From Epithemia pelagica (taxonomy: Eukaryota; Protista; Bacillariophyta), in the NCBI GenBank assembly GCA_946965045.2, contig OX337234.1, forward strand, positions 1,116,001 to 1,180,000: DNA of 64,000 nucleotides, given 5' to 3'. The notes under the pieces were generated by a model that was given only the letters and a program-made list of their open reading frames with translations, searched no databases and had not been told where the DNA came from. This document shows, piece after piece, positions 1 through 60,291 of this stretch. Position 1 is the stretch's first letter; every line of letters starts with the position of its first letter. A program made the translations under genes and the position numbers.

Positions 1-929
1 TTTGCCTCCCTGGTTTTCAAAGACTTCAGGAGAGATTCAAATTCATTCAAACACTCCCGCCCATCATTGTACTGGGTTATCAACATGCTGTTGAGGGCCT
101 CAAATTGTACCAAGTACCATTTCTTGTTCCCATCCGTACCCAGCAGAATTGTTGATTGCCCCCATACACTTTCCCTCGAGAAAGCAGCAAGCTGGAGTAA
201 CATTTGGGCCTTATTCATCGGCGTCCTGTCGGTCTTCATCTCGACCAGTGCCATACCGTATGTGTAGAACGATTCCTGAGACCGCTCACAAAGTGCGAGC
301 ATTGATTCCTCCGTAACACATCCGTCAGACTTGCCGTTTGCCACCTTTCGATCGGCCTTGATAGGTGCTAATTTCTTTCCTTTCACGTCTCTTATGCCTA
401 GCTTCTTGCCGTCCACAGCAAGCGCTTGATCCAACTTACCAAAGAGCCATTTCAGTGCCAATGGGGTCCCATCATTTTCCGAAAGTTTTCCTGTTCCTCC
501 CGTCAAAAGTGCTTGCTCCCATTCAAAATTTCCTACAACAGATCCGACTCCGACATTCATGTTGGCGACGGCGTTACGCCAGGAGATCGACAGCCCGGTC
601 AACAGATCGGTTGCAAATTCAGTGTTCGCCTTCGACATGTTTCTGTCATCCGTTTTTGACTCGATCATCATTTTCTCTATGTTTTCAATTTTCCGTTTCA
701 TATCCTCCGAATCATTCGCCTGTTGTTTTTGTTGTTCATTCATTTCCTACACCCAGAGTGAGAACAAAGGTGAAACTGTAAGATCACGAACACAACAGAT
801 AAAACACCACAAGCACAAATTCAAACTCACCTGCTTTTGGGACTCGATCATCATTCCTTCCATGCGTTCAATTCTCCGTTTCATATCCTCCGAATGATTC
901 GCCTGTTGTTTTTGTTGTTCATTCATTTC
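1..929 (-). CDS. Crinkler/CR-type PD-(D/E)xK restriction-endonuclease-fold protein; 5' end missing, 3' end runs off the window (exons 929-831 and 746-<1)
   Basis: Not in the ORF track because it runs off the edge. Manual translation is open from 746 to 1: EMNEQQKQQ...ANGKSDGC...ALVEMKT...AQMLLQLAA, i.e. D..ExK..Q REase motifs. Intron 830-747 is GTGAGT...GTGTAG, phase 0. Confidence 0.7.
751..837 (-). repeat. 87-nt intron-derived sequence identical to 8202-8288
   Basis: Base-by-base match ACCCAGAGTGAGAACAAAGG...CTCACCTGCTTT at both loci. Confidence 0.95.
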
Positions 930-937
930 CTACACAG

Positions 938-2099
938 GACAAGATGATTCTCATTACGATGTTACAAATGCGCGACAATATATGGCCGAATTTGTGCGTC
1001 GAAACGGGGAAGCACGATATGCAGTTAAGAGATTGCATCGTGATTTGAACGATTTGGAAAGAACACGGGGGATGATAGACTTGGCTATTGAAGCCAAGAT
1101 TCTTTCATTTGTATGGCATCCGAATATCAGTAGGTTTTGCATCTCTGCGTTCCCCTGCTTCCCACCTTGAAACAATTTGGTCTCTCATATCAAATCATTT
1201 GTTTTCGTCTCTCCAGTAAAAATGCGTGGAGTTGCTGCAGGCCCAACGCTGAACCCAACTTTCTTTATCGTTATGGATCGTTTGCACGTATCCCTACCCG
1301 AAAAAATGGAAGAATGGGCGCAGATTCAATCGGAACATCAGGGCTCTATTTTTGGAATCGGCTCTAATAAGCCTGAAATGAGGCAATTGCTGCAAGAGCG
1401 TCTAAGGGTGGCGTATGATCTCGCAGCTGCGTTCTCGTACATGCATGACAAGAAGTAAGTGATGATGCTGCTGTACCTCGATCCTCGATATACCATCGGA
1501 ACATATTTTGATCTCAGTGTCTCTCTTTGTAATCAGGCTTGTTTACCGAGATATCAAGCAGGAAAACATTGGTTTTGATGTCCGGGGTGATGTCAAAGTG
1601 TTTGATTTTGGGTTGTGCAAGGGTTTGTTGCCATCAAGAAAGACCAAAGACGTTAATGGTCGAGATTTGTATGGGTTTAACCTGACTTCTCGAACTGGGT
1701 CCGTACCCTACATGGCACCGGAAGTCGCCGAATGTAAACCTTATGATTGCAAAGCAGATGTCTTCTCTTTTGCCATTCTCCTCTGGGAAATGCTGGCCCT
1801 TCGGACAGCGTTCAAAGGATACTCGAGGAAAGAGTTCCTGGATCGCGTTGTCAGACGAAGAGAAAGATTAATAGTAAACCGATTATGGCCATCACTGACA
1901 AGAACAGTGATCAAGGAAGCATGGGACAATGACACACAAAAAAGACCCGACATGAAGGTAGGTTCTGGTTATCTGCTTTGGTGCTTCAATCTGTCTACGG
2001 AATCTCACCACTTTTCTCTTCCTCCAGATCTTGGCCCTAAAGTTGAAAGGTGATCTTGATACTATGTCCTCGTATTCCAAAGCTCGTGATAGAGTCTGA
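938..2099 (+). CDS. TKL-type Ser/Thr/Tyr protein kinase lacking the N-terminal Gly-rich loop (exons ~938-1129, 1217-1454, 1538-1957, ~2028-2099)
   Basis: Motifs YAVK, DLAIEAK, HPNIIKMRG, YRDIKQENIGF, DFG, YMAPE and DVFSF across GT-AG introns. No GxGxxG upstream within the frame. Confidence 0.8.
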
Positions 2100-4015
2100 C
2101 TGACGCGACAAAGATCAGGCGATAGTTGTTCCAGAGGTGGAGAAACGGTGTCATCTTTCAAATAAGTTTTATTTCTGTGCCATTTCCTTTCGCGTTGGCT
2201 CCCGAAGTGGGGTCACGTTCCCACACACTGTTTCTATTTAATTAATGTTCAAACCAGGACCGCTGCCATGCAGGCCGCGAGTACTTCCTGTCAACCACAA
2301 ACTGTTACTGTAACAATACCTCTATACATCCAGGCAATTACAATTCTTGACTTTTCCTGTTTCGACTTGACTGTGTGCGTGCTACCACATTTGCCATCGG
2401 TCTCCATTTGGTCAACGCGCTTGAGAATTGAAACTCCAACTCCCATTCTTCATCTAAAACTGAACCTGTCACTCAACGCAGTGTACGAATACGAAACAAA
2501 CCAGCTCCATCCCATTCATGTGACTTCAAAAGGCAACGTCGACACTCGTGAAGAGCGGGTGTAAGTCTTGTTGGCCAAGCCATCGACAACGCCATTAAAA
2601 ACCTTCGGACATGAGGGAACGCATAGCTCCCTACAGTCTACAGTACTCCCAAAATAGAAGTACTGCCAAATTTTTGCTCAAATGACACGACAGCTGATCA
2701 AGGAGGCTTTTCATACTTCATAGATAAAAGAAGAACTTATATTTTGGGTTAGTTAGGACTTTTGGTCAAGTAGCTGGATGCGATAACACTTTTGAAATGC
2801 CTTGTTGATTCATTGAACATGCTAGAGCAGTAGCTATTGTCCACCCAACGGTGGTGTTCCTACTGGGAACTGTAGTCCCGCTGGTTTTCAACGCGGGACT
2901 AAAAATTGAGTTTCGGGTTTTTCGGCAAAGAGAACATGTCATTTTTTCTCAAATCCTACTTCCAACCAACAACAATGAGACACAGCGTAACGTAACTGCT
3001 GAATACAACCAAAATTGGAAAACCTGGAGAGGTGGCTCTCGCCAGAAGTGATACCGGACCAGAGAGCAAGTCGTGATGAAAATAAATGGAGAAGCAACGT
3101 CGAGCACAGAAACAGGCCAAGTACATGTTGTCCGGCGTTTTGCTGCAAAATCGGCGCAAACATTCACAAGTCAATGGAGGGTTTGTGTTTACTATAGAAG
3201 GCCCAAATCCGGGAAAAGTTTCCGCTTCACGATCATTGGTGGAATCTGCAGGGACGAGACAAACGGGGATATTTGATATTTGTCACAAAACGCCAACAAA
3301 ACCCTCACTCAATAAAAATCGAAAAAGATGTGGGACCTCCAGGCACCGGCTGTTTTGGCTTACTGCCAGGGCGAAGCTCTCCGACCAGTGGCAAGCTGGT
3401 CGATAAGGCACTGCCGCGACGTGAACACGATTGAGAAATTGAGAAGTCGGAATCATATCCCCCAGTTTGCACGCAGCGCAGCATTATCAAAGATCTAGTT
3501 TAAGGAGCATGCTGCAGGATGCAAACGGATATGGTTCGAATTGATGGAATCCATGGGTGATGCGGTTGTCCGACGTTTCCAATTTCCAACTAGGAGTACT
3601 CCTACTGCTAGAGGAGTAAAGCTATGGAGAGGGGGTGGGTAGCTGCCATAACTATGCATCGGAGAAATAAGTTCTTAGATCGCGCGAATCTTCTCCCAAT
3701 CAGATTCATGCATGTTTGACGTGTCGCTCTATTATCTAACGACCACAGCGAAGCAGCAAATTTCCAATTTCCTGCAACTTGCAACGGCATACAGCATAGA
3801 CAGCACGACAAGCCGCTCAACACTCAACAGCACACAGTTGATGACACTTATCCTTGACTATCATCCTTGATTAGAAATGGGAAGTACGTGTCAAGCTTGT
3901 CGTCAAGATCAATCCGAGCCTTGGATGCTTGAACTGTCCTCACAATTTTGTAAAAATCGGCATGGATGTCGCTCGCATTGCCACATCAAGGTAGCTTGAT
4001 TGATTACTCGCAACT

Positions 4016-5544
4016 ATGGATAAACGTGCACAGAAAATCGACGGTTACGACGTTGGACATCTTCTGAAGACGGCAGCCAAGGCAGTGCTAAACAAGACTG
4101 CTGACTCACATGTTTTGGACAAAGAGGCAGAAGATCGAATCCCCAAATTTGATATACAAGGTACGTTGCTACTGATCAGTTTTTTAAAGCTGGACTAATG
4201 CGATCGATTGTTCTCATTGAATCGGTCAATCTTTCCTTCGATTTATTGGACACAGAATTGACCGCTGGAAAGGTTTTGGGAAGGGGAGGTTTTTGCGTCG
4301 TACGTGAAATCACTGAAGTGGTTTTGCATGCGACGGAAGAAGACATCATAGAAGACCAAAAACAGGATGATGAGGATCTTATCCACAATATAATACAGGA
4401 TCGTGGCTTCATGGCGACTCATTACCTTCGTCAGGGTAAAGACTATCGTTATGCCATCAAAGAAGCATCGAAGAAGTCGGCACAGCTCTATGTTAATGCG
4501 GTTGTTGACTTGGCGATCGAGGCCAGGTTTCTTGCGGTTATTCGACATCCAAATATTATAAAGATGAGGGCCATGGCGACAGGTCCAGCATGTCATGGAA
4601 ACTTTTTTATTGTCCTCGACAAATTGTACGACACCCTCTCTGTACGCCTGCGCAAATGGAAAAAGAGATTGAATAAAGGAGTTTTGGCACGCATTGTATG
4701 TGGCGGCAAAAAGGAAATTGAATTTTGGGGAGAGAGATTGACGGTTGGCTACGATCTGTCTTGTGGACTGAGTCATTTGCATGACATGAACATTATCTAT
4801 CGTGACATCAAGCCAGACAACATTGGTTTTGATGTTCGCGGAGATGTCAAGATATTTGATTTCGGCCTTGCTAAGGAATTCAAAAAGAAAGATAGAGGTG
4901 CTGACGGCACTTTCCATCTTACGGCAGAAACTGGAAGTCCTCGATACATGGCGCCAGAGGTGTTTTTGGGCAAGCCGTACAATGAAACCTGTGATGTCTA
5001 CTCCTTTAGCATTTTGCTATGGCAAATACTAAAGGCAGAGGTTCCTTTTGATGAGTATACGGAAAGTATGATAATCAACGATGTTTGCAAGGGTGGCGTC
5101 CGCCCCAAACTGGATCCTTCATGGTCTCAAAATGTTCAGCACTGCTTAATTGCTGGTTGGGCCAGTGAAATTTCAAGGCGTGCGAGCATGGAGCAAATTT
5201 CGGATAAGCTTCGAGAAATCATCATGGTCGAGACCGACGAAGAAGTTGGTGATGACATGGGTTTCTCTCGTAAGAGCGACTGCCGGCATGAGATGATGTG
5301 GAAAGCCATTGAATGGCTCGTTTCCGTCACAAAACTCAACGCTTGCTACTCTGTGGTGTGTAGGCGAGTTTGGCTGCCTTTGGGTATCTCCCTGCAAATT
5401 CCTTCAATAAACGTGCATGGTCGAGGTCGCAGAGCCGACACAGATATTTGTCCCCATGGATTGACGATGATCTTCTTTCGATGGAACAATTTTAGAGAAA
5501 CGTGCATTAGCCATTGCGGAAGAGACGACAGCAGACTTAGATAA
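4016..5544 (+). CDS. TKL-type protein kinase (intron 4161-4255)
   Basis: LGRGGFCVV, YAIK, HPNIIKM, YRDIKPDNIGF, DFGLAKE, YMAPE, DVYSF. Splice DIQ-G|AA-LTAG is in frame. The exact 5' and 3' ends are uncertain. Confidence 0.88.
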
Positions 5545-5575
5545 AAATAGAGACTATGCAATGGAGCAAACTACG

Positions 5576-6433
5576 TTACGGTATTCTGCCCCGACTTGCT
5601 ATCCATACTGTCGTAGCCATAACAGCGACGGCGGCATTGAGAGGTTTGATTTCAGCTAGTAATTGTTGAAAGGTGTTTGCAGGATCACCTTGCTTTCCTG
5701 TCATGATTGCCAAAAACGGAATATTGCTGGTTAGACTGTCTCGGACAGGATCTAGCTCGCCTCCCATCCCTCTCCGAAATCTGGAATCCGTGTGCATTCC
5801 TCCCAGCCATGCGACTGCCGCAGGGCCCATCCACCACAATCTCAAGGCCGGATTCGACTGCACCATGGCATTTCCAGCCGATACAAGACCAAAACTCCAC
5901 AAGCCAGGGTGCCGACTGACACGTTCCAATCCTCGAATGTCACTGGACGATCCCTCCTTGTGTTCGTCTGAAAAATCAAAGGGGCATCTTACTTGGAGAC
6001 TGTATCCAGTTCTTTGAGGAGCTTCTGTCTTTGATGCTATTGCTGATTCCGTAACGTTGTCTTCCATTTTGCTTGATACCATAGCCACAGGAATTTGAAG
6101 CTTGGGCAGCGTCTGCGAAGCAAGTACGAGGCCCACAGAGGCCAATCCCCAAGCTGCAACCAAATTCATGGCGGGAATGGTGGAACCAAATAACGAAGGC
6201 GTCGCGGATTTCAGATTTTTTAGTTTGAAGTACGAATAGCCAATGGAACCCATGGCCACTGTGGATATGAAACCGTACAGTCCGTGGTATTGTTCATCAC
6301 CGAATACTTCTCGTAAATATGTCCGGTTTTCGGATAAAATTGCATTTTCGGCAATGAAGAATGACCAACCGAGACCGCCCCATCTTAATTCATTTGACGT
6401 TAGGAACCGACCAGCCCATGTCGTCATGGTCAT
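5576..6433 (-). CDS. NnrU-domain membrane protein (Z-ISO/NnrU-like)
   Basis: Hydrophobic ORF with ERVSRHPGLWSFGL and GGMHTDSRFRRG motifs resembling the NnrU family. Confidence 0.6.
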   Translation of the reverse strand: MTMTTWAGRFLTSNELRWGGLGWSFFIAENAILSENRTYLREVFGDEQYHGLYGFISTVAMGSIGYSYFKLKNLKSATPSLFGSTIPAMNLVAAWGLASVGLVLASQTLPKLQIPVAMVSSKMEDNVTESAIASKTEAPQRTGYSLQVRCPFDFSDEHKEGSSSDIRGLERVSRHPGLWSFGLVSAGNAMVQSNPALRLWWMGPAAVAWLGGMHTDSRFRRGMGGELDPVRDSLTSNIPFLAIMTGKQGDPANTFQQLLAEIKPLNAAVAVMATTVWIASRGRIP

Positions 6434-6670
6434 GGTACTTCACGCAGTTAGCGGTGGACCTTGGATCTTTTCCTTAACATCATGGCCATGGCGCCATGTC
6501 ATAGACTTGACCTACAGCTTTGACTTGCATGAAATGTGAAAATCATCTACCCTAACTAGAGGGTAGCTCTCTCCCTAAATGGTCGGAAAGGCGGATAGGT
6601 GCAGGTACGTGGTTCTTGCTTCAAAGAAGAACAAAAAAATCCCACAAATCCTTCGTCACTTCAAGAGGCA

Positions 6671-7017
6671 ACCATGATGAGAGAAAAGGGGCTCTCTGGG
6701 CTCAAGTGTTGGCGCTGAGTTTGTCGTCTGTGGAAGGATGGATCGCCCGTAACTTGCAGCATGGATCTCCAGTCCGATCGACCGCCATTCAGATGGCCTC
6801 CTCCGACAGGAACGTCGTCTTGGCTCCGTCCGACAACCCATCAGCGTTTGACTCTTTCAAAATTGGTTATGCCCGAGTGCATCGGTATAGCCGCGAAGAA
6901 GACCCTGAGTGCGAAACTGAGTACGTTATGTGGTATCATGGAAGATCGAAGGAACTGGACGGTGCCAATGAAAATAAGCTTCCCCCTCTTTCGACGGGAC
7001 GGATTGGCTCTGGTTAG
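6671..7017 (+). pseudogene. N-terminal fragment of a plastid-targeted five-bladed beta-propeller (GH43/32/130-like) protein
   Basis: Signal-like ALWAQVLALSLSSVEG|W, then YVMWYHGRS...STGRIG. The ATG at 6671 is out of frame with it, and the ORF stops right after GRIG next to the 3' end of the CR-HNH gene. Confidence 0.4.
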
Positions 7018-7119
7018 CAATCATGCCTGCATTCTAATTCCTAGGGTATAATAATAATTCGCAAAATACGGAAAGTTGAAAAGCATTGTTGATGCGCCAC
7101 TTGCGTGAAACGAGCAATA

Positions 7120-8500
7120 TCACGAGACTGTTCTCCACTGCCCACGTGTTTCATTGTAGTTCCAGAGCAGAAGCTTGTAGATAATTTCATACACATCAAC
7201 AGTCTGCAACTTTTCCTTCCACGATGCCAAACTGGCAAGGTCGTCAACACCTGGAATGGCGGTGACACACACTTTCTCAATTGATCCACCGGGGTTCTGC
7301 TGTTCTTCAAAGAGAAGTTTATGTGTCCGGTTCTTTTCGCAAAATATGTAGATTGGGCCATGAAAATAGCAGTGGCCTTCAGCGTTGGTATCACCAACGT
7401 TTTCAGGCAAGAACGGTCGCCAGGACTCCAAAATCACCCTATCGCGGCACCAAAGTCGGATTGAAATTCGATAGAACTGCTTATGGTCCATATTGATTTC
7501 ATCCGTTGCAACAGGTTCAAGGGCCACTTTTGGTTGAGTTTCGGCTTTTACCGCACTACCCTTTCCCGTACCATCGAAGTTTACATGACCATCTTTCGAC
7601 AGAGCCAGACGATTAAACTCGTGTTTATCAAGCCAAGCGTAGTGTCCCTTGCACTTGGCCCTTGGGAAAATATGAGCACCATCAGCCTTGCTTCGAGCGA
7701 ATGCCCGGTCTGTTTCAATCCGTTGGTACTTGAATACTGTATCGTCCATCCCATAGCTTGTTGCCTTCGACGACAGTTCAATCGCCGAGAGCTCGACATC
7801 CCAAACAGGCGAGTCGTTTGGCGGTTCACCGTCTCGTTGACAGGGAGTGTAGTCACTCGTTTGTACAAGATCAGCGGTAGCTTCGAAAGGTGCGGTTGTG
7901 GAGCGATGGAAACGTCCAAGGCAAGTGACTCCACTTGTCGTGGTGATGTAGTCGTCGACGCTCGTGATAAAGCTGTTGGCACTGCGCTTGTCTTCAAAGA
8001 CGACCGACATCGAAATCAGGCGTTTGTCATCGTCGGTCGAATGATTCTGTACCAGAAAAGAGTCGCCAACATCTTTTCCTTGGGGGTAGTAGCCACCAGC
8101 GTCAATGGCAAGCCGCATTAGCTTGAGGCGCACTCCCCCAATGTTTTTTCCTCGTTCGACCGTGCCCTGAACAAGAAACCAAAAAATCTGCCGCTTCTTC
8201 CACCCAGAGTGAGAACAAAGGTGAAACTGTAAGATCACGAACACAACAGATAAAACACCACAAGCACAAATTCAAACTCACCTGCTTTAATGCATTGCTC
8301 AATTCATTAGCGAACGGGATTGACAATCCGCTTCTCTCAAGCTGTTCGCTTGAGATTCCAAGTAACGTTGATGGTGTGTCAAACCCCTTTTTGAACAACG
8401 TAGATGCCGTTGTGGACGCGACCTTTTTGCGCACACCTTTTCCTTCCAACCATACCTTGAGTTCACTGACATCCTTGAACTCCTCACCGTTGGCACTCAT
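7120..8500 (-). CDS. Crinkler/CR-type protein: SAM-like header exon (8500-8282) plus HNH-nuclease exon (8187-7120), ~428 aa
   Basis: Header MSANGEEFKDVSELKVWLEGKG...LERSGLSIPFANELSNALKQ. Phase-0 intron 8281-8188. C-terminal GAHIFP...NRLALSKDGHVNFDG is an HNH_2-like motif. Confidence 0.72.
8202..8288 (-). repeat. Second copy of the shared 87-nt intron sequence
   Basis: Identical to 751-837. Confidence 0.95.
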
Positions 8501-8956
8501 TGTCGCGCTGTTGGTGTTGTTTGGGTTGTTTGGGTTGTGGCTGCCTCTGTTTGTCGTCGTTTCTTTTGTCTCATCTCTATCTAAGAGAGTGAGTCGTTTG
8601 TGTTGCTGCATGTTTTTCTGGCGTCAGCCATTATTATCAAGCGCAAGGGATCAAAAAATTACATCACCTATACCGAGGGAATGTGGCAAAATGAATCGTG
8701 ACTGCGCAGAATACAGTCTTATTTAAGCCTTTGAACTAAACCCGTTCTTGACCCTTTGGTCTCGCGCGCATGCAGGTCAATCAAAAAGTGATCGCGTGAA
8801 ACTTCCTTCTGGTCGCTGAAAACGCTTCAGCGGTGACATCATCGTGCTGTCTTTATCCCACACTCTATGAGTCAGTCTCTTGTCAAACTCTCTTTGTGAG
8901 ACTTCTCATTCAACATTCAACGAAGGCCTCGTCCTCTTTGAAAGTCAAGTACCAAC

Positions 8957-13866: not shown

Positions 13867-14549
13867 AACCCTCGGTATCAGTGTCCACTGCTTAGCTGTT
13901 TTTTGTCTGTGCCACCTTCACAGGTTCCCATGTGGACACAGACAGCATTTTTCGCTTTTGATGCAAATAGAAATTATCAAATTGCAAATTGGCACGCATG
14001 CCCAGCTGAACTTTTCGACGTTTGAAGCGGACGCAAGCCCAACAAGCGTCCCCTGCGTGGATGACGGTTGGTTGTTGCATAATTCGGGGCAAGCTCACAA
14101 TTCTCTTTTCTTTTGCCAAAGCACATCGTACTTACTGCTTACGAATGTTACTGGCTTTCCAGGTGAGCTTGATCCATTGCCAATTTCCATGTTGTCAATG
14201 ACATCACTCATGCTCACGACCAATTGCCACTTTTGCTTGCTCTGCTCGTGGGAGACGCTACTCATCTGTTAAGTCGCTGGGCAGCTCATTACTCTCATTG
14301 TTCATTCTTGTCGAACAGAAATGACTGGTTTTTGCTGAGCGCCATAACTTTGATTGCATTTAAAAAACTCTATACTCTAGATATTCTTTTGTTTATTTAC
14401 TAGTAGAAGAACGCCAGTGCTTGTCATCCATGAGACTTTTGAGCCTTGTTAATTTGTTGCAGCTTTGTTCTTTGTTGTGAGCACGACGATGACCCTAAGT
14501 TTTGCTATGAAAACACAACAGAACAGCTCTCACAAGCTTGTACCGCTCA
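13867..14549 (+). mobile_element. Left arm of a ~690-bp long inverted repeat (foldback/long-TIR element)
   Basis: Reverse complement of 24880-25570, starting AACCCTCGGTATCAGTG, with scattered substitutions. Confidence 0.85.
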
Positions 14550-14804
14550 CTTTGAGCACTCTGTGTCGACTACCTACCTAGGTAGGATATGATAATTGGT
14601 CAGTAGGGTGTGGCAAGATGGCTTCCCATCTATTTGATGCAAAAACAACATCGTTGAGAAATGATTGAGAATGACGCTATGATGAGAGACGAGAGAGAAT
14701 AATCTATCCTATAGAGCATATGACAGTAGCCAAAGCCAAAAAACAATCAAACAACAAACAATTACGGCAAGGAAAAGATATTCCAGTTGACATCTGGCGG
14801 CTTG

Positions 14805-15525
14805 ACTTAGGATATCTGCTAGCTAGGTGTGATAACGACTTGATAATCGGGGTTAGTTCAGTTGGGTAGCAATGTTAGTCAACCTATCACGTTGGATCGA
14901 CGATGGGGCCCTCGCCTTCGGTCTACGATATAGGTTGACTCCTTTTGTAGACAACAGTTGCTTGCAACTTTTGTGTTTTAGAAAAGAGTGAGATTAATCT
15001 ACATGAAAGTGATTTTCAGGTCTGATCGATCTCCGATCTCAAGGAGAACTTAGCCGCTCCATTTCTCTCTTGAAGAATAGTTCTTCCTTGTTCTTTTTGT
15101 TCTTCATGATTAGATGAGAGTATTCACCTCTCCTGATTGTTTGGGCCTTATGAATGTTCTTTCTAGAAGGTACTTACCTTTGGAACAGGCCTGCTAGATC
15201 ATCTGGAGGTCGATCGTTATCTTTGTGTAATTATCAATTTGAGAGAGAGGATATTACGACTAGAGGTATCGTCCAACTTGCGTTCGTATGAACGGATGTG
15301 TAGGCTCGCGACTTGCATTGTGCATGTATATGAATAATTAGTACATGAATCTTCCTGGACTGCTGGGTGAAGTTACTATTCAGCTAAATCCATCTGTTGT
15401 TCGTCCGTTCAACTGCAACACGAGCGTCTGTCTTACTTCAGGACAGCTGCTTTCCTCTATGTCGTAGCTATGTCATGCTATGTCACACCTAGATCTAATG
15501 GTGCTAGATGTGCTATGTTGTAACT
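14805..15525 (-). repeat. 3' LTR (721 bp)
   Basis: Direct repeat of 23848-24568; only 2 substitutions found by eye. Confidence 0.95.
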
Positions 15526-15534
15526 CTCCCTCTC
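15526..15534 (-). promoter_or_regulatory. Polypurine tract GAGAGGGAG
   Basis: Immediately 5' of the 3' LTR in element orientation. Confidence 0.8.
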
Positions 15535-18500
15535 ATGGAGTGATTGGGCTAGAATTGCGACATGGAAGGTATGATGGTTTACCATCCTTGATTGAGCTTA
15601 CGGCAGCGCTCAAAAAGTTCTCGATTCTGGCATTTAGTAAAGTAATCAGCCTTTTGGTAGCTGTGCTGACCATGCTAACTTTCACGCCGCCGGGGTGGTC
15701 GCCTACATGCTCCCAAAAGAAGTGGAGGTAGGTGTTAAAATGCTTGATCCTTGGAGTTAGGCGCTGCTTCGTTGCAAGGTAAAAGGCTCCACTATTGTCC
15801 TCAAAGACTTCAGAGAAAATAGTGGGCTTCGGGAACGGCAGCTTGAGATTGCCTAGAAGTTCTTCAATCACTCGGCGGGTAGCTATCACACTACGCATGG
15901 CTTGTGAGAGGGCATGGTACTCAGCCTGGAGTGTACTAAGAGCTACCGATGATTGGAGTTGCGAACGCCATATTAGTGGGCATCCACAAAATGTTAGTAT
16001 ATAGCCAGTACGAGACTTAGCACTAACGGGATTGTCTTGGGGTTCGCGTCCATGCAAACCGGCAAAATCAGCATCTACATAGCAATCTAGTTTGAAATCT
16101 GTAGTAGGGGTGAAGATAGTCCCTTTGTCTCTTGTTCGAACTAAGTAGCGCACAATTGTCTTGATGGCGGTAGCGTGTGATTTCTTTGGTGCTGAACTGA
16201 ATCTAGCTACCTGACTAACAGCGAAAGCTATGTCAGGTCTAGTGTTGGTAGCCAGGTATAGGAGCATTCCTACTACGGAGCGATATTCCCAGCTTTCCTT
16301 CATAGGTTCACCGTCTGGGTCGCTGCCTAATCCCAGCTGGGTTGCAGGAGTCCAATTAGGGTTGCAATCTTCTAGTCCTGTAGTTTTAATAATCTTCGCA
16401 ATAAGTCCTTTCTGGGTCATGGTAATAGATTTATTCTCATGACGGATAAAGTTTATTCCGATTAGTCAGTCAGATTTCCTTCTTTCTTGAGAGATAACCC
16501 TTTTTCTTGTAGTCTTTTGATTAGATCGTCTATTAGTTCCATTTTAGGAGCACAGACACCACAGTCGTCTACCCACAGAAAAATGATGATGTTGTCTTTG
16601 TAAAGCAAACACTCGTCATGAGCACTGAGGGTGAATCCGTCTTCCTTTAAAGCCTCTAGTAGGTGGGTATACCATAACCTTGGAGCTGAAGACAGGCCAT
16701 ATAGACTCTTGATGAGTCGCAGGCAGGTCTCTCCAGGTTTGCCAGACCTAAATCCTCTAGGTAAATGAATCCATACAGGTTCATCCAACGTAGCTTGTAC
16801 AAATGCATTGTTAAAATCAATGCAGGCAAGCTCCCATCCTAGGATTAAGCTGATAGTGAGGACAATACGGATTGAGCTCCAGTGAACAACTGGGCTGTAG
16901 TTTTCTTGTTCCGTTTCCTGTAAGTCTCCTCTCACACAATATCTGGCTTTGTGTTTGAGGATCTCACCATCGGGAGTTCTCTTTCGTTTAAATACCCAAG
17001 TTCCTGGTAGAATCCGCGTTTTTGCCTGAGATTTTGGGACCTCTTCCCATGTTCCTTTACCTTCGAGTTCCATAATTTCTTTGTGTGCTGCAACTTTCCA
17101 TTTTTCAATGTCAGCATCTCGCATGGCTTCGTCATAAGAAAGCGTATCTGGATCAGAGAGAGATGCTTTCATGACGGTCAGGAGGTTGCTATGATCTACA
17201 GATGGAGGAGCAGTAGGATGAACGGTAGCCACATTTATTTCTTATACAAGACGAGTGGGCCGTTTAACAGTCCGACCGGAGCGACCGGAAGTGGGTTGAG
17301 TGGATTTGCGAGGACGGGACTCTCTCTGAGGCCGAATCTCCCTCTGAGGAGATGGACCAGGGGAAGGAGTAGTGTTGGGAGAAGGAGAAGGCAAAAGAGG
17401 GGTTGTCGAAGGCGAGGTTTCAGCGACCTGGTCAGTTTTCTCCCTCTGAGGAAGGGGTGTATTGGAAAAGGACATCCGCTTAGGGGATGGTTGATACACC
17501 GGTTCCTCATTGGGAGCTGAAATCGATACGGGTCTGTTGCTTGGTGTCGAACTGGGTGCTGGTGCGCCAATGGGAGTAGCACGGGGATTAGTTAAAGGAA
17601 ACGTGCCAGGAGTGGAACTGGGTTGGGAAGGCGATGGAAGCACGGCAAAAGGACGATGAGTCCCAATTGCATGTGCGACATCGGATTCTCTTTGTGTATA
17701 GGACTGTTGTGCGGCCTCATCTGTAGTAGTAGGCGCTTCAATATTTGGAGCATCGTCGTTGTCGAGATCTATATATTGATAGGAGGAGTCTCCGAACAGT
17801 TTATACCACGTGTCAGTGAAGAAGTCGGGCAATTGTTCATAAGTCATAGCAATTGTACTGAACCAATCGTCGAAAACTACATGGAATTGTGGTGTTATGT
17901 AGCCGGTGTCAGGGTTAAGTACCAGAGGGACCGAACTAGCATGGCGGTTACTTAACCCCATGAGTTGGCAACGTGTAGACCTAGGCTTCCAACGAGGTAG
18001 TTTCTTCCCGTCGGCAATGGATTTCTGTAGGACATAGACTGGGCAGCCCCACACGTGTAGGTCGTGGAACTTTCGTTGTTCCCAACGGACACGTGTAAAT
18101 AAGTCGTGGGGGCTAATCCCTGTGTCAGTACGGGGCACATGATTATGTAGGTACACTGCATGTGATACTGCCATGGGCCATAGCATAGGGTCAGCTAATT
18201 CTGGCCAGTGTATTGCAGCATGGAGCATCATTGTACGAGCAATAGACATAATAGTTTGTATTGCCCGTTCGGCAATGCCAGCATGGTGATGTGCCCCAAC
18301 TCCGGCAAATCTGGAAATTTGAGCGAATGTTCGGAGTGATTGGGTGTAATTCTTAGAGGTAAAGGCTGCTCCATTGTCCGTTAGGTATTGAAGCGGTACT
18401 ACCCCTATTTCTCTACAGAAAAGCTCGAAGGATTCCTTAACACTCAGCGTTTCATGTGTATTTAGGTGGGATTGAAATCCTATCCACGTGTATCCCGAAG

Positions 18501-21500
18501 CGTGGTCTACAAAGATTGCTCCACCTGTATAAAGATCGTTGATTTTTGATTTCCCCTTTGAGTCAAAGCGTCTCCCCTTTGTAGAACACACAAAATGATC
18601 TACTTAGATGCATTGACCTGGATGCAGGTTACCGTCTTTGGTAACCCCTTGTTTGTCTTTGACGATGATCGTTTTCGTCCCTTGTTCGGTTCGTCTGCGT
18701 TGTTTCCCGAATTGACATGCTGCGCACAAGGGTAAGTCGGTGAGTGTGGATGCGAGAGTGTGTAAATGACGCGTTTTCTCTGTTGTTGCCAAAACGCCTG
18801 TTCGCATGAGAAACTGTACCTTGAGAAGATTCATGTGTCCGAGTCGGTAATGCCATTTGAGAAGTTCCTTCTGTGCTGGTGAGAGGTTTGCGTTTTGGTG
18901 TGCGACTTCATTCACAGTACTGTTGAAAGCGAGTGATGTTGTTTGTAAGTGGTCTGAATTGTATCCGTAGGACATTGGAAGATTGTTCTTCGGATTTACC
19001 ATCACATTTACCTCTCGGCGATCAGGGTCGCCTGGAATTCCAGTCAAGGTAAGTGTATAACCGTCCTGAATGATTTTCTCTCCATGGTACTGCTGAAGAA
19101 GATTTTGCGTTGACAACTATCTCACAGAAATTTTTGGTACATGGAATGCAGGAAGTTTCAACATTCGTGGAGCGCCATTCGTGTCCAAAACCGTCCAAAG
19201 GACAGTTCCTCGTCCAACAGCCTTCATTTTATTGGCAATACCTTTTACTTTCAGATCAGGGAAGGGCTTGATCTTTCCAATGAAGTCCTTGGCGTCGTTG
19301 GTAATGGAGATACTCGCTCCGGAGTCCCAGATGATTGGGTACGAGGCTCCTTTTGGCATGGATTCACGAAGAGCCTTTGGATCTTGGAGTGTTGCTCGAA
19401 GAGCCTGTAGGGTGATGTTCTCCCACGGGTGGTGTGTGATGGAGTCAAGGTCAAGATCGTTGATGGAGGCCATCATTGCCATCATGTTGTTTGGATTGAG
19501 GGAGGCTCGGTGATGATGAAATCGTGGTACAGGCCGTGTGGAGCATGGTACGTTTTGGCAATAATAGGGAGTGTTGCTCCTGTTTTCGGTGTTCGATCTC
19601 TGACGGTTGTATCCCGCCAGATGTTGATGGGGATTTCCAGCAGAGATGGGGTGCTGGAAGCGACGAGTGCGAGAACGCAACAAACTTGTCTTTGTCGGCA
19701 TTCGTCGGCTGGTCGGTAGTGTGGAGTCATTATGCTCGGAAGGTGTGTTAGCGAATGGCCCGCGGCTTCGCTTGTGCCTTCGAGGTGAACTCGAGTTGAC
19801 CTTGAATGAAGTGTTCCGCCGTTTTCTCCCTCGCTTCGCGGGTATAATGGTTCGTAAGCTCGTAAGGCCAGCCTGACATAACGATGCCGACCATTCCAAC
19901 AATCTACAACCAAACACAACAATCAACCGAATCGGTGTGGAGAACAAGGAGAAGAAGAAGGACCTTGTAGGGGAGTTGTGGTTGGTGGCAAAGTGGGTTC
20001 GGCGGTTGTTTAGCTGGGCATGAAAGGCATTGACCGAGACGGCGGTCCTTTGGGTGTTATTGGGGCGATTTGGTCCCTTGGCTTTGTTAGAGTTCTTGGA
20101 TTTGGGACTGGATGAGAGGCTGAAACTGAGAAAGATGGCCACCCAACAAGAAATCCATGTAACGATACCAGGCATGCAGCCAGGATGCAGCAAGAAGGAA
20201 AGAGAAATTTCCTTGAATCCGCAGTAAGCTTCATAGACACCATAGTAGAGATGTACCGCGGCACTGTACAGGTGTCCTAGCCCATTTGTAAAGGCGTCCT
20301 TAGATTCCTCGGTAGTGGTTGGAGCTGGGATCAGCCAGAGGATGATCGGTAACAAGACAACAAAATGTAGAAGGGCGACCAAGAAAAGATGCTGAAGAGA
20401 GAAAGTTTCGTCTGAAAGCTCCTCGACTGGCGTGCGCGCCGGTCGTCGTGGGGTACGCACGTGTCCAAAGGTGAAAGGTGCATAGTAGACTTCTACGCAT
20501 TTTCCTACCATTGAGCCTCCTACTGTCTCGTCCACAGTACAGTTGGATCCGTCCGAAGTGTCTTGGGGGTCAGTGTCTCCTTCATTTTGTTGAGAAGTGG
20601 CAGGTTGTGAAGCCTCATCTTCATCATCGTCGAAATCGACATAAGCGAGATGGGCAAAATACTTGGTGACTGCCACTGTCTTGTTCGAGTCGTCATCATC
20701 ATCCGTCTTGTTTTCGGGTTCCGAGGGAACATATCGTTCGCCTAGCGTGCTGGTTGGAACGAAAGAGGAGGATGAGTTGCTTGTTGAGTCATCTGTCATC
20801 GTGCTCTTGTTCTCACGGAATGTTGTGAGTTTTGTTGCAGGAGTGAACTGCATCGCTGATCCAGAGCTGGAGGTGTCCATCGGTTGAAAACAAGGAACCA
20901 TCGGGCCTGGTGGAATGGGCGACATTCCAGGAAAGCAAGATGCTAGTCGAGGGTGATTCGGAATGGGCATTCCATCAACGAAGTATCCCATTGCCCATTC
21001 CTCTTCTTTGACACGTTGGTATGCCTCAGCCACGGTAAGTCTCGGCTCTCGCCAAGCGTTTGCGAACACGGTTTTGGCTGCTCTCTCGTACCTCATCCCA
21101 TCTCTTTTTGCTTGCTCTGCTTCGAGAATGATATGCTGCATTGCATATTTTGTCGATGCAGGGATGCTCAGCCGTCGTCTTGGAGGAGGAGGAGGCGGCG
21201 GAGTCGGATCGTTCGGAGAAAAGGGCAAGGGAGCATTTGGCCGTGGTGGCAGAGGTCGTGCCTGATGGATTGGAGAGATGGCTGGTAGTTTCTTTTCCAG
21301 ACTCGCCAATTGTCCAGCTTGGAGATGCTTGATTGCATCGGTCGATGTGTCCGTGCTTGTTTCAGGAGTTTTGTAAGTGAGATCTGTCTCTTCACTTTCC
21401 ATTTCGTCGTAGTTCTCATTGATTGCTGCTGCTGCTGTGATTTCTTTGTCGTACATGTCCTCGAGAAATCGTTGGGTTGCAGCGTCATTCAATGGATCGA

Positions 21501-23628
21501 GCGGATCGTCATCATGGTTGTTTGTCATCGTGAGATCCATGTCATTCCATTGATCAAAGTATGTTGGTCCGTTGTTCTTGGATGGCTCGAGGACTGGAAA
21601 GGTAGGCTCAAACGTTCCAATGGTACTGGTTCCTGATGAGTCTTCCATATCACTCTCACTGAACTGTTTTTCTTTAATGTTGGCTGAAGTGACACGATCC
21701 GGTGTAACAGCTTGGGGAGTGGTGTTGGAGAAGAGCGAGCTTGAATCTTCATTGGACTTGGTTTCTTCATACCTTTCTTCTTTGCTTTCTTCGTCTTTTT
21801 CAAAGGAGGCCATGAAGGCACAAAGTTCGTATTCCTCATCAGGTGAGTTGTCACAGTGGTCGTAATCGTCGTCCTCTGAGTTGTCTTCACAGAACTCATA
21901 TTCTTCCTTGTCCATTTCTCTGACAATGTCCCTGTCCCAGTAGCGAGAATGGAGGTCGAGTTCTGCTTTCCAGGCCGTTGCGTCAAACTCAAGAACATGA
22001 GCGGATGCTTTATGTTTCTGTTGGTTCTTGTTGTTCTTGGCCATGGATTTGAATCCGACAATATGCTCGCTAGTACGATGCGTGGTGTTCCAGATCTTGC
22101 AAGTGCCGCACCAGAAATATGTTTGGCCGTCTTTGGTACGTTCATCCGGCTGGCCATCTGCAGGCGGAACACGTTTCCATTGGTGAGTAGAATCGTTTTT
22201 CGGTGTGGAAGAAGGCTTGTCCGTTTTGCCTTTGAACTTGTTGTTGCTCTTGTTCTTCCCCTTCTCACGAAAACTGTTCTTGCTCTTACCATACGTTTGC
22301 ATCTGAGGGATGAGGGCATTGGCTTGGTAGCCGATACGGGTCTTGCCACGGCGATTGTTTGTCACTGTCAGGTTCCCGCCATAAGAAACAGGTAAGGCCT
22401 TGCTGTCCTTGTGGGAGCTTCTGGCACTCCATTTGCCTTGCTTGACACTAACAAGGTACCGGTTGTTGGCGATCTCGGAGACGTGCGTGTACAGGAGCTT
22501 GTTGGTGCTCATGTAGGAGTCAGCGACGGAACGATCGAGAAAACGGATGTGTTCTACGGCGTCTTTGACTTTCTTGTTGAGAATCAAGAGGTCAAATTTT
22601 GGAGTTTCCGGTCATTCAGCGGTGAGGATGTTCTTGAGGAGATTCGCGGTGAGGGTGTGGTCATAAAGACCAGCAGCCGAAAGAGGACGTGCCTTGTTTG
22701 CGAAATCAGTGGTAAGTGCGGTAATGTCGTGTCCTGAGTACTGTTGGGGTACCAGACTGCGCATCTCACCCTTTACCAACTCCCAATGTTCGATGGAGTC
22801 GTCCGTAATGATGCGGACGATTACCATAAAGAGGACGGGAAACGAGTTCGCAGAGCGGGATTGGTCCTCTACTTCGCGACGAAAGGTTTTCTCGAGAGAA
22901 TCGAGTAAGTAGTCCTGAGCCGCTGCGTCATTGTTCTGATCGTACTTATCGTATTTTTGGATCTGCACTGCCATCAGGTCCTGGACGCGCTCGTTGGTGA
23001 AACGAGGATGCTCCGTGATGATGTTGATCATCGATGTGGAGTTCTTGGGGTCAGGTAAGTACACAATCGTGTCCATCCCATGTTTGACAAAGTGCCGATT
23101 GAGCTCATCCTGCAATCGCGAGAAATCGCCTTTCTTCTTGTCAAACTTGTCAATAGGTCCAGTTACGCGGTCGATGTACCGCTTGTCTGTTAAGGTACGT
23201 AACTGGAGACTCCTGAGAGGTTCCGTCTTGGCTGAGTCATCTAACTTGGACCAGTCATGTTTCGGTTTTCCTCCAGTCCAAACGACGTACTCGTCACGTC
23301 GGGACTGCACCAGTCCGCCCATGATGGGCTTGTCTGGCATGAAAACGTCCGTGTTTTCTTGTGGATCGTCGTTTGCTGCCATGATTCGTTGCTGTCTCCT
23401 CCTGGATCTCGATACACCAATCAACGGTCTTGTCCGATCTGTTTCTGATGTGGCAGTTCGCGTTGGGTCGGTCTCAGGTGGAACAATTTGCAATGGTCGA
23501 GTGGTCTCTTGCTGGGATTCGCGTTGGGCGTTTGGATCGGCAGTTGGATCACTGTTCGGTGCTTCTAGAGGGTCGACGGTCTCTTGCTGGGGATCTGGAT
23601 TGGAGTTGGTATCACTGTCCGAATTCAA
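15533..23628 (-). pseudogene. Copia gag-pol, disrupted
   Basis: In-frame stops at 22612, 19117, 18604 and 17242, with the frame continuing through each (e.g. GQCI*VDHFVCSTKG). Frameshifts near 16462 and 15660. Zn-knuckle, HHCC, DDE, KARYCVRGD and LWVDD are recognisable. Confidence 0.92.
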
Positions 23629-23835
23629 CCAGTCGAAGCTTCCAAGTCCACTTGAGGTCGGGGAGATGTCGTCCGCTGTTGTGGATTCTTGGTTGGGGCC
23701 TTGATTGGCTCCAGTAGTATTTGCGCGCTTTGGATGCTTGGTAGGGACGACTCAGTGGTAGTCCTCCAAGGTAGTTAACTTCTTGATAAATCGATCGATA
23801 GAGAGAATAGCGTATGGTTTATCAGCCTTGATTTG

Positions 23836-23848
23836 GGCTCAGCAACCA
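23836..23848 (-). promoter_or_regulatory. Primer-binding site TGGTTGCTGAGCC (tRNA-iMet-like)
   Basis: Directly follows the 5' LTR and overlaps its last base. The tRNA identity is an inference. Confidence 0.7.
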
Positions 23849-24568
23849 CTTAGGATATCTGCTAGCTAGGTGTGATAACGACTTGATAATCGGGGTTAGT
23901 TCAGTTGGGTAGCAATGTTAGTCAACCTATCACGTTGGATCGACGATGGGGCCCTCACCTTCGGTCTACGATATAGGTTGACTCCTTTTGTAGACAACAG
24001 TTGCTTGCAACTTTTGTGTTTTAGAAAAGAGTGAGATTAATCTACATGAAAGTGATTTTCAGGTCTGATCGATCTCCGATCTCAAGGAGAACTTAGCCGC
24101 TCCATTTCTCTCTTGAAGAATAGTTCTTCCTTGTTCTTTTTGTTCTTCATGATTAGATGAGAGTATTCACCTCTCCTGATTGTTTGGGCCTTATGAATGT
24201 TCTTTCTAGAAGGTACTTACCTTTGGAACAGGCCTGCTAGATCATCTGGAGGTCGATCGTTATCTTTGTGTAATTCTCAATTTGAGAGAGAGGATATTAC
24301 GACTAGAGGTATCGTCCAACTTGCGTTCGTATGAACGGATGTGTAGGCTCGCGACTTGCATTGTGCATGTATATGAATAATTAGTACATGAATCTTCCTG
24401 GACTGCTGGGTGAAGTTACTATTCAGCTAAATCCATCTGTTGTTCGTCCGTTCAACTGCAACACGAGCGTCTGTCTTACTTCAGGACAGCTGCTTTCCTC
24501 TATGTCGTAGCTATGTCATGCTATGTCACACCTAGATCTAATGGTGCTAGATGTGCTATGTTGTAACT
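23848..24568 (-). repeat. 5' LTR (721 bp)
   Basis: Direct repeat of 14805-15525. Confidence 0.95.
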
Positions 24569-24879
24569 GCTTGTCATCTACTCGTACGAAATGAGACAAA
24601 AGTAAAGGATCATGCAAGAACAATAGGAAAGATAGCTGCAGCAGTGATGCGTGAGAAAAAGGGAAAAGAGACCACAAGATAAGTAATAAGCAGCAATAGA
24701 GAGAAACGGTTCAGTCCAGCATGATCCATCCATTGTTCTCACCTCACCCCCGTCATGGTCAAGCATTTGGCTCGGTTTTGGGTTTTTGTGACAGGTGTCG
24801 AGATGATGATTGATGATGGATGCCCAAATTTGAATCGTGGTGACCCGGCAAGGACAACCACCAACCGTCAACTGTCACT

Positions 24880-25570
24880 TGAGCGGTACAAGCTTGTGAG
24901 AGCTGTTCTGTTGTGTTTTCATAGCAAAACTTAAGGCCATCGTCGTGCTCAAAACAAAGAACAGAGCTCCAACGAATTAACAAGGCTCAAAAGTCTCATG
25001 GATGACAAGCACTGGCGTTATACTACTAGTAAATAAACAAAAGAAGGTCTAGAGTATAGAGTATGTATTTTAATGCAATCAAAGTTATGGGGCTCAGCAA
25101 AAACCAGTCATTTCTGTTCGACAAGAATGAACAGTGGCAAGTAATGAGCTGCCCAGCGACTAAACAGATGAGTAGCGTCTCACACGAGCAGAGCAAACAA
25201 AAGTGGCAAGTGGCAGTGAGCATGACTGATGTCATTGACAACATGGCAATTGGCAATGGATCAAGCTCACCTGGAAAGCCAGTAACATTCGTAAGTACCT
25301 AGTAAGTACGATGTGCTTTGGCAAAAGAAAAGAGAATTGTGAGCCTGCCCTGAATTATGCAACAACCAACCGTCATCCACGCAGGGGACGCTTGTTGGGC
25401 TTGCGTCCGCTTCAAACGTCGAAAAATTCAGCTGGGCATGCGTGCCAATTTGCAATTTGATAATTTCTATTTGCATCAAAAGCGAAAAATGCTGTCTGTG
25501 TCCACATGGGAACCTGTGAAGGTGGCACAGACAAAAAACAGCTAAGCAGTGGACACTGATACCGAGGGTT
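24880..25570 (-). mobile_element. Right arm of the long inverted repeat
   Basis: Ends CACTGATACCGAGGGTT, the reverse complement of 13867 onward. Confidence 0.85.
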
Positions 25571-29195: not shown

Positions 29196-29908
29196 CGCTT
29201 GCGCTCATGAATGGGAAACAGGAACCGCTTGACAAGACATGCATAGAGAAATCTACAAGCCCATTTTGTACTCTACAAAGTCAATACTGTTTCAGAAGCG
29301 AGTACTCTTTACGTAGTAGTGGATCAAGCTTCACGGAATCATCACACACACACACACCACACCATGAAATACACACATGATGCAATGCACCTCTAGTAGG
29401 AGTATCAACACAAGCTCCTGGCACTTTGTCTATGGGAAAGATAAAAGCATAGTCCACTACTAGTTTAGGCTTCCTGCTTCCTGGGCTTACATACCCCATG
29501 ATGACGCTGTCAAACCTTTGCTTCATCATTGCAGTGGTTGATTGTTCATTGCAATGGTTGATTGTCATGTTTCATGTTGTCATCCTTCCTTTGATGCATT
29601 CCGCCTTCACTTGTGATCTAGGTAGATGGTTTTGGCCATAAAGTTGTAACTGTGGTCGTTCGTACGGCTGGATGGTTTTCTTTTGGTTTTTGGTGTGCTC
29701 ATGGTCGTCTTTTGTGGTGTTGCTCGAAAAGTGAGACGATTCCTGGCTCTTGTGCCAGCAATACAAGGCGTGACCGGCGCGTCTATTTCGAACGATCGAA
29801 GGAGGCTGGCGATATCACCCGGCTGGCGCTTTGGGAAAAAATACGAGACAATTTTTTCCTTTCGGATGACGGACGAACAAAGGTACCCCCCCCCCCCCCA
29901 ATCGCACC
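29196..29908 (+). repeat. ~700-bp dispersed repeat, direct copy at 47516-48195
   Basis: CGCTTGCGCTCATGAATGGG...CCCCAATCGCACC at both loci, with indels. Confidence 0.9.
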
Positions 29909-36667: not shown

Positions 36668-36783
36668 ATCACGTTTACCTCTTATTGTCTTACTGAATTG
36701 AAAGGAGATCCTCGATAATGTGTATTCTAATCTTAGTCTTTTTCTTAACGAAGTGAACTCGCTCTACCGACGTAGATAAGTGA
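36668..36783 (+). repeat. ~120-bp dispersed element upstream of the sulfotransferase; inverted copy at 60292-60413
   Basis: ATCACGTTTAC..CTCTTATTGTCTTACTGAATTGAAAGGAGATCCTCGATA...GATAAGTGA is shared. Confidence 0.9.
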
Positions 36784-41236: not shown

Positions 41237-42148
41237 TTAGTAGCCCTCTTGAATCCTTGACATGGGAACTCTGGAATTTCTGGTTGGTACGTGTCGTCCA
41301 CCACCGACATGTTCCATGGTAGTCCCCGCTGTAGGTCGATAATACGAGTTTCGATCCCTGGGTTTGCGCCAGTCAGAGCGACAAAATTCGTTGCATTCAT
41401 GATGGGCAAAAAAGGTGGAAATTCCAGCACTTCCCAAATCGGTGGGACCTTATTCCTGGTGGACAGACATGACCACCGGGTCGGTCAACACCACACCATC
41501 CTGGTACACGCCACCCTGCAGATCACAAAGCAAGCATTGGCCATTGGATGAATGGTACGAAAAGTGCGACACTGCTTGCATGACGCGTGCCCAGGGAATG
41601 GAATCGTCCGACCATCCAGTGTTGGAATTGAATTTTTGGTAGTTGGTGATGAAGGGTTCCTGCAAGACCTTTTGACCAGCAAACGAACAACCAGGCCGGA
41701 AGGTCCAAACTTCTGGAAGATTGATTTTGACCATGCGATCAATAAATCTCTTTTCATTCCATTTCGTAATGAGGCGAACAGCCATATTCGAAGCATCAAT
41801 GTCGGCATCATAGAAACTTGCTTCCATCACTCCGCCCGTTTTGAACCACTTGCACACGCACTGTTCGCCAGCTCGATTTCCATGAGTGTATCTTCCCTTG
41901 GCAACATATCGAAACGCTCCTTCCGCAAAGGGATAATCCAAGGCATCGTTTGTGAAGGTCGCTCGCGTTGCGTTGTTGCGGCGTGCCGTTTGAGAAGGAT
42001 CAACACTGTTGTTGTTCGATTCGTGATTACCAGCCACACAACTTGCACAGCGTGATGCGCCTGGGCATTTGTTTACCCTTTGATTATTGCTGTATGAAGA
42101 CCGATGCAAGGAGCGGTTGCATTCGGCGCAGACACGATATGATGGCAT
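41237..42148 (-). pseudogene. Zn-finger plus alpha-kinase (eEF2K/MHCK family) with one in-frame stop at 41452-41450
   Basis: FAEGAFRYVAKG, QEPFI, KFNSNTG, SHFSY, CDLQG, LTDP, then QE*GPTDLG...HECNEFC in the same frame. Confidence 0.85.
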
Positions 42149-42265
42149 GGTAATGGCACAATGGGCATGATCTTATTCCTCGCCAAACGCCGACAGCAAA
42201 TTTGTGCGATCGATGCGGAAACGCGCAGAGGTCGCGGATATACTTTTGGATGACTGCTAACCTTA

Positions 42266-42812
42266 CAAGCTGAGTTCAGAGTTTACATCAACGACGTAGG
42301 CCCCTGTAGAATTTGTACCAGAGGAGTAATCCTCGATAGCGCTTCGCGTTTCTAATGTCCGACACGCGACGTCCTAGTGGTTGCAAGAAATATTTTATTA
42401 CCTTTAGTGTTATGTGTGATTTCTTCCGAACGCTAGATTTTCATCAAAAATTACGAAAAACAGTCGACTGTGTTGACCATGGTGGAGGGTCGGTGGAGGG
42501 CCGTCCCAACCGCGTACCTTGTTGCCGAGCTGTATCAAGGTGCCTAAGGGTGTTATTAGGCCATCACCAATGGGGCAACAAGGTATGCGGTTGGCATCAT
42601 CCCCAATGAAGTGATGATCCGACGCACCCCACGCACGATAGTCTCGTACAAAACGAAGTTTTTCTGGGGGAACGCGAGATTGTCGAGTTTAGGAAGCACT
42701 TTTCACATTAGAGGCATAATTATAAGGGCTATAGTAATTAGATGGCTGGCGTGATATACGTAGATTTCCTACTAAGCGCTACGTCGTTGACATTCGGCTT
42801 GAACTCAGCTTG
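42266..42812. mobile_element. Tc1/mariner-type MITE, TIR CAAGCTGAGTTCA, TA TSD
   Basis: TA|CAAGCTGAGTTCA...TGAACTCAGCTTG|TA; no ORF; inverted sister copy at 46803-47341. Confidence 0.85.
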
Positions 42813-43134
42813 TACCTTACGAGCTACGAGACCATCTCCTGTCTACATCACTCTATCCTAGGAGTAAGAGGAATCAGCAGGTAAATGTAAAGCATCAGCA
42901 TCTTTGTACACATTCTCCTCTATAAAATGTTTTTCCTTAGTTTGAAATGTATGTGAAAGTGTTACAAGGCTCTCTCGTCCGGACATTGTGCTAGATTGGG
43001 ACCTCAATAACACCATGACCTGAACTCTGGACGCAGGGCCACATTGGGTGTTGGACAATGGTAACCTGAAGAATTAAAACGACCAACTTGGAGTTCCTGA
43101 GTTTGCATTTACCAGCTCATCGTGTAGCTACACG

Positions 43135-60246: not shown

Positions 60247-60291
60247 CTTACTAATTGTCCCTTCGCTTCAAAGCCAGTGGGTCTGATAAAC

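Follow-up and report, generated by a model that had tools for sequence, protein, structure and literature searches.

A nuclease swap in a Crinkler-like gene of the diatom Epithemia pelagica, probably through insertion of a copied genomic segment into an intron

Introduction

Crinkler-RHS (CR) proteins join a header to toxin modules carrying restriction endonuclease (REase) or HNH domains, and the available portion of one review places them in free-living eukaryotes (PMC5289972). In Phytophthora, the N- and C-terminal parts recombine at a coding motif, HVLVVVP, as the accessible part of the source describes (PMC3726527). In the available text of these two papers, the word “intron” occurs 0 times. 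Excerpts of a third paper describe a few Crinkler (CRN) genes with introns and make no claim about recombination (PMC11064341), and excerpts of a fourth report a CRN-like selfish gene in animals that is moved by transposons, with no mention of diatoms (PMC12957317). Here we describe a locus of the diatom Epithemia pelagica at which the header exon of a predicted REase gene has probably been joined, through an insertion into its intron, to a predicted HNH nuclease. The locus lies in a stretch of 64,000 nt, referred to below as the window (GCA_946965045.2, contig OX337234.1, positions 1,116,001 to 1,180,000 of the forward strand).

Duplication of phase 0-0 exons belongs to classical exon shuffling as described by Gilbert and Patthy. 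A literature search of titles and the beginnings of abstracts found neither a diatom CR family nor an intron-based CR swap; Zhang et al. 2016, which lay outside that search, may cover diatom CR proteins.

For comparison, contigs of four sequencing runs, X1 to X4, all from one study, were aligned to the window, and further copies of the intron were taken from a metagenome run, X5. X1 and X2 are DNA-like. The type of X4 is unrecorded; it is RNA-like by behaviour, its contigs skipping five GT-AG introns of the two kinases and lacking intergenic cover. Contigs of the runs are read as demonstrating presence, not absence, and their depth is not taken as copy number. Stored homologous proteins carry P numbers; those with named sources come from Bacillariaceae, Cylindrotheca, and Entomoneis.

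Results and Discussion

Two identical introns of one duplicated unit

A first-pass annotation of the window had reported an intron repeated in two nuclease genes between unrelated exons and had taken it for a conserved exchange cassette. The repeat is real, and its extent is corrected here to 88 exactly matching nucleotides (750-837 and 8201-8288), of which, on the minus strand, 7 are exonic and 81 intronic. Positions 830 and 8281 both mark GT donors in phase 0, and a BLASTN search with the repeat found no third copy in the window (E of 1e-42 for the pair). A second repeat, on which the earlier annotation had not drawn, lies beside the first: positions 653-752 and 836-935 are 90% alike and 183 nt apart, and the supposedly unrelated coiled-coil exon, here called E', repeats the first part of the REase exon, exon E (Table 1). 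When 836-935 is joined to 8204-8288, the product is a second copy of the exon+intron unit 653-837: 175 of 185 nt agree, and identity is complete over the first 124 nt, which span 7 nt of exon, the 84-nt intron, and 33 nt of exon. The acceptor end of the intron had been thought to differ between the two genes; it does not truly differ, because the missing bases, the last six of intron 1 (GTGTAG), stand at 930-935, 7.27 kb from the rest of the intron.

The order header, intron 1, E', intron 2, and exon E with its nuclease can thus be rebuilt without loss of a single base. Because the joined pieces restore a second copy of the unit, the simplest history is that the ancestral locus was one gene with its exons in this order. 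Rather than one intron common to two independent genes, the identical introns belong to the two copies of an exon+intron unit duplicated in tandem within one gene; a 7.27-kb insertion splits one of these introns. The complete product of exon E is P0093 (340 aa). The 84-nt intron 2 foreseen between 830 and 747 agrees with an X4 contig as to its TAG acceptor, since that contig joins the exon at 746; the sequence to which it is joined is a different upstream sequence. Intron 2 has no special fold (z of -0.25). E' is severed from its header in this allele and is uncovered in X4, which is no evidence of silence.

Table 1. Coordinates of the features of the locus within the window
Feature	Position	Strand	Remarks
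Exon E with REase-fold PD-(D/E)xK nuclease	3..746	-	extends off the window; SDG at ~332, EMK at ~248
Intron 2	747..830	-	84 nt, GT..TAG, phase 0, intact
E' exon	831..929	-	99 nt, phase 0-0, coiled-coil; tandem copy (90%) of the first part of exon E (653-752)
Stranded end of intron 1, GTGTAG	930..935	-	left insertion junction 935/936
Inserted genomic segment	936..8200		7,265 nt (7,268 with the common 3 nt); ends within coding sequence; no terminal repeats
Protein kinase gene without 5' part	937..2100	+	no Gly-rich loop; longer version in the runs
Second protein kinase gene	4153..5544	+	passenger
NnrU-like gene	5576..6439	-	passenger; E 3.6e-5, slightly below curated cut-off
Headless HNH gene, used as exon 2	7120..8196	-	ferredoxin-like domain aa 2-102, HNH-fold nuclease aa 139-355
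Chimeric intron	8197..8281	-	85 nt: 81 nt of intron 1 and 4 nt of donor coding sequence; phase 0; AAG acceptor
GTG	8201..8203	-	right junction; common to target intron and native HNH gene
Header exon	8282..8500	-	73 aa; SAM-like by eye, not confirmed

The inserted segment and its donor

Both ends of the insertion can be followed into other genes. To the left of 936, contigs of all four runs go on into another sequence, in X1 and X2 for more than 1.1 kb within one contig. On the other side, beyond 8203, X1, X2, and X3 each have two contigs that read the EFEEWK end of a header of the P0001 type (translated by hand). P0001, P0051, P0053, and P0054 represent native copies of the HNH gene that are 97-99% identical to the HNH gene of the window and have an alpha-helical header; they lie on two long contigs and read through the intron site without an intron. 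The headless HNH protein P0052 and the exon E product P0093 equal the window's own products; both are placed on a contig of 808,957 nt, distinct from the two that bear the native copies. The segment starts in the coding sequence of such an intronless HNH gene and finishes inside a kinase gene.

GTG is found at both junctions, and no base of the target was lost. This overlap may be either microhomology, given that the donor gene itself carries GTG at the junction, or a 3-nt target duplication. Comparison of the segment ends gave scores of 16 (inverted) and 12 (direct) against a random median of 14 and a 95% level of 18, showing no repeat above random, and no transposase is encoded within the segment. 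The segment was likely copied from another genomic locus; a broken end of the intron would have paired at GTG and been extended by copying 7,265 nt before it was joined again, which would amount to a templated insertion at a DNA break without transposon ends. The same region holds another insertion polymorphism, an X1 contig with about 950 extra nt at 6502-6503 and a 2-nt overlap. Contigs also branch at 6951-7008, within 3'-flanking sequence of the HNH gene, and at 8620-8649, about 150 nt upstream of the header ATG, where short flanks are common to other loci.

Splicing of the header to the HNH exon

One X4 contig joins 8282 to 8196 across a GT-AG pair, in frame, with 27 letters on its short side. 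Phase-0 splicing of the intron, as originally proposed, is borne out by this joint, which also revises the acceptor. The acceptor is the first AG past the insertion junction, supplied by the TGG-AAG codons of the donor, and its use in this run yields a header-HNH reading frame of 431 aa. Further AGs at 8194, 8188, and 8167 would likewise keep the frame; 8197 is the only one observed, and the junction at 8281/8188 that had been predicted was not seen. The halves of the X4 joint derive from two loci, whose upstream sequences have 2 nt in common there. For E' and the REase exon, the consequence in this allele would be the loss of header and promoter.

The uninserted state and other upstream partners

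X1 and X2 show the header exon followed by the intron, and their intron-bearing contig continues without a break into exon E; zero contigs of these runs link the intron to HNH, and neither insertion junction is bridged. X1 and X2 likely have the allele in its uninserted state. All intron copies in these two runs are identical in sequence, and the suggestion that several upstream sequences share it stands. At least five different sequences precede it: E' (in X1 and X2), the window header, one ending in HVLDHDALKQ (X1 and X2), one ending in QSQYVSEQ (X1; a poly-Gln variant of it occurs in X5), and one ending in MEEIIEHIIIKQ (X5). Three of these classes are known by 30 loose letters each, translated by hand, and an open frame so short is weak evidence of coding; the HVLDHDALKQ case may represent a disruption rather than a header. 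The upstream sequences diverge from the window header 5-14 nt before the GT. On the downstream side, every listed contig of X1, X2, and X5 that passes the 3' end of the intron enters the same exon E. The intron+REase block may also acquire other exons on its upstream side where breaks fall 5-14 nt ahead of the donor, perhaps aided by CAG-rich (poly-Gln) exon ends, and the intron would be a tolerant landing zone rather than a site-specific cassette.

Predicted folds of the nucleases

Structural models support the REase and HNH folds assigned to the two predicted nucleases. The model of the HNH exon (predicted local distance difference test score, pLDDT, of 87.8) consists of a ferredoxin-like domain followed by an HNH-like domain, and the latter matches the HNH restriction enzymes VcaM4I (Z of 8.4, root mean square deviation [rmsd] of 3.2, 114 aligned residues) and TagI (Z of 6.8); its homologues have weak matches to HNH_2. 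A conserved ferredoxin/ACT-like domain (aa 2-102 of the product of 7123-8196, minus strand) precedes the nuclease in the HNH proteins. The REase was modelled through its paralogue P0088 (pLDDT of 64.7), whose fold matches BpuSI (Z of 8.9, rmsd of 4.0, 138 aligned), TT1808 (Z of 7.7), HsdR (Z of 7.1), NucC, and many further REase folds; all these Z values are moderate and indicate fold, not activity. The REase-type nuclease has a conserved D..ExK motif.

Searches by other means were negative within their scope. Foldseek at an E value of 0.001 returned no match for either nuclease model, Pfam names neither nuclease of the window, and none of 22 proteins matches a Crinkler or SAM model of Pfam at E values up to 1. 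The SAM domain formerly assigned to the header was not confirmed by PDB sequence searches with phmmer and a six-row profile, by Pfam, or by the model (header pLDDT below 60). Described CR headers are either Ubl domains with the motif LXLFLAK or alpha-helical; “SAM-like” and “Ubl-like” as header labels here are patterns assigned by eye. No related locus emerged for the REase from a scan of metagenomes, nor for HNH from scans of viral contigs and prokaryote genomes. A 24-nt pattern from the intron had 0 matches among metagenome contigs, and 0 of 2,130 candidates was a longer relative of the REase, which is weak evidence.

Reassortment of headers and nucleases across the family

An N-terminal part of at least 35 aa precedes the nuclease module in 36 of 65 stored HNH-type proteins and in 13 of 38 of the REase type. 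Four header classes are each found on both nucleases, as illustrated by cross-nuclease header pairs such as P0046/P0074 (52%), P0008/P0070 (48%), and P0005/P0068 (43%). A tree of 25 selected HNH rows, which leaves out near-duplicates, short rows, and headerless rows, requires 12 header changes where the least possible number is 6. The HNH domain of the window falls among the copies with an alpha-helical header (100/100) and away from older proteins with a SAM-like header on HNH, and the window header is related to those of P0012, P0017, and P0088. Judged from these sequence comparisons, header/nuclease shuffling is real, frequent, and Crinkler-like, in agreement with the modular family originally envisaged.

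The proposal that the intron lets any header join any toxin fares less well. In the REase paralogues P0067 and P0088, as in the native HNH copies, the header is fused to the nuclease without an intron, on long contigs. Because of these intronless fusions, shuffling does not need the intron, which enabled one swap. Among other arrangements, the REase protein P0107 has two different header classes in tandem, and the HNH protein P0045 has a coiled-coil unit resembling the upstream exon from X5.

Alternative explanations

Taken together, we consider it probable that a header-REase gene with a tandem exon+intron unit received, in intron 1, a 7.27-kb segment that was likely copied in break repair, and that the header is consequently spliced in frame to the predicted HNH nuclease. 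The swap is likely recent, expressed, and polymorphic. Several points weigh against this reading. The joint between 8196 and 8282 comes from one contig of one run, whose type is unrecorded, and at 7922 the X4 sequence departs from that of the window. The window alone shows the left junction, 935/936, and the missing junctions in X1 and X2 are suggestive only, since contigs cannot show absence. A single study produced the four runs, of which one may be the source of the window. Finally, five upstream sequences on one donor are more reuse than a one-off accident requires. Because the left junction has been seen nowhere else, misassembly retains some weight, and the window might be a chimera of two loci; contigs of X1 and X2 bridge neither junction, and at several sites none of the four runs agrees with the window. 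Both junctions, however, coincide at one base of one intron with nothing lost, and the X4 contig joins halves from two loci at an exact GT-AG pair, which makes a chimera distinctly unlikely.

Another reading takes the intron for a dedicated exchange cassette, inside which homologous recombination would join any header exon to any nuclease exon. The identical intron behind at least four upstream sequences in X1 and X2 and one more in X5 fits this proposal, as do the 124-nt perfect block available for recombination and the distribution of the header classes over both nucleases. Yet exon E alone follows the intron in X1, X2, and X5, the sole HNH case involves a nonhomologous junction with a borrowed acceptor, and the family contains the intronless fusions described above; we regard a cassette as unlikely. 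That a transposon carried the segment into the intron, by Pack-MULE, CACTA, or Helitron capture, might be suggested by the 3-nt duplication at its borders, by the richness of the window in elements, and by the role of Helitrons as drivers of CRN shuffling that the available part of PMC5289972 proposes. In the runs, however, both ends pass straight into native coding sequence, GTG was already present in the donor, the end scores lie within the random range, and the segment has no transposase, all of which leave capture very unlikely. Identical copies in several places could also be explained by an introner, a mobile intron that enters unrelated genes independently. Each copy, however, is accompanied by one and the same exon downstream and by 5-14 nt of exon upstream, terminal repeats and a stable fold are lacking, and the 3' end proper to the intron is missing from the HNH copy; this explanation is extremely improbable.

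Comparison with described systems

Of the described systems, the CR proteins are the closest. The family shares with them a variable N-terminal header on REase or HNH domains, multiple copies, the reassortment of headers and C termini, and occurrence in free-living eukaryotes, and by analogy it may resemble them in its working. It differs in having no Pfam Crinkler match and in the breakpoint, which is the coding HVLVVVP motif in known cases and here, in one swap, an intron with a borrowed acceptor and passenger genes. The locus likely represents classical exon shuffling caught in the act rather than a dedicated swapping cassette. As in classical exon shuffling, a nonhomologous joint lies in an intron, splicing keeps the phase, and a symmetric exon is tandemly duplicated; in contrast to it, the incoming HNH module brought neither an intron nor an acceptor of its own, and the product and both parental states seem to occur side by side among samples from a single organism. 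Templated insertion by microhomology-mediated break-induced replication, as outlined in the available part of PMC8421209, likewise involves a distant segment that is copied, with ends in genes, short microhomology, and no element ends; here an expressed in-frame fusion results from what would be a pathway of this kind. Introners and introner-like elements (PMC3879977 and PMC12130899, both available in part) also place identical introns at more than one site, whereas the copies here are few, bound to one downstream exon, and spread together with flanking exon sequence.

Other features of the window

A 504-aa open reading frame at 58753-60267 (minus strand) encodes a STAND/AAA NTPase with a C-terminal D..ExC pattern and may be a third CR-like gene, of the NTPase+REase type. 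At 13867-25570, a Copia-type retrotransposon (14805-24147; identical long terminal repeats of at least 300 nt, internal stops) is nested in an element with long inverted arms. A direct repeat, 29196-29891 and 47516-48186 (98-100%, 18.3 kb apart), surrounds copia reverse transcriptase, sulfotransferase, ankyrin, and alpha-kinase genes, and the alpha-kinase region at 41241-47343 has a 2-kb tandem copy (~75%) as well as inverted copies. A 108-nt inverted pair lies at 36676-36783 and 60292-60399 (23.5 kb apart), and a hAT transposase occupies 60937-64000.

Conclusions

By analogy with Crinkler/CR proteins, the proteins of this family likely act as nuclease effectors in conflict with other cells or with invading DNA. 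A broader role for the intron is possible and, in our judgement, doubtful: a CAG-rich exon end, a phase-0 intron, and a nuclease exon might together form a reusable splice adaptor in diatom CR-like genes, in which poly-Gln codons would give in-frame microhomology on the header side, the intron would absorb imprecise joints on the nuclease side, and the family's own nucleases would make the breaks that drive the exchange. If this were true, new header-nuclease pairs would appear so quickly that isolates within a species would differ in them, and a free-living alga would possess a polymorphic toxin system based on exon shuffling.

Exon shuffling has mostly been inferred from old products. Here the parents, the uninserted allele, the junctions at base level, and the spliced transcript appear together in samples of one organism, so that the birth of a new domain pair becomes directly testable. 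The locus also points to a large diatom family of header-plus-nuclease proteins that was not found described in our literature search, and to a second route of CR diversification beside the coding breakpoint of Phytophthora.

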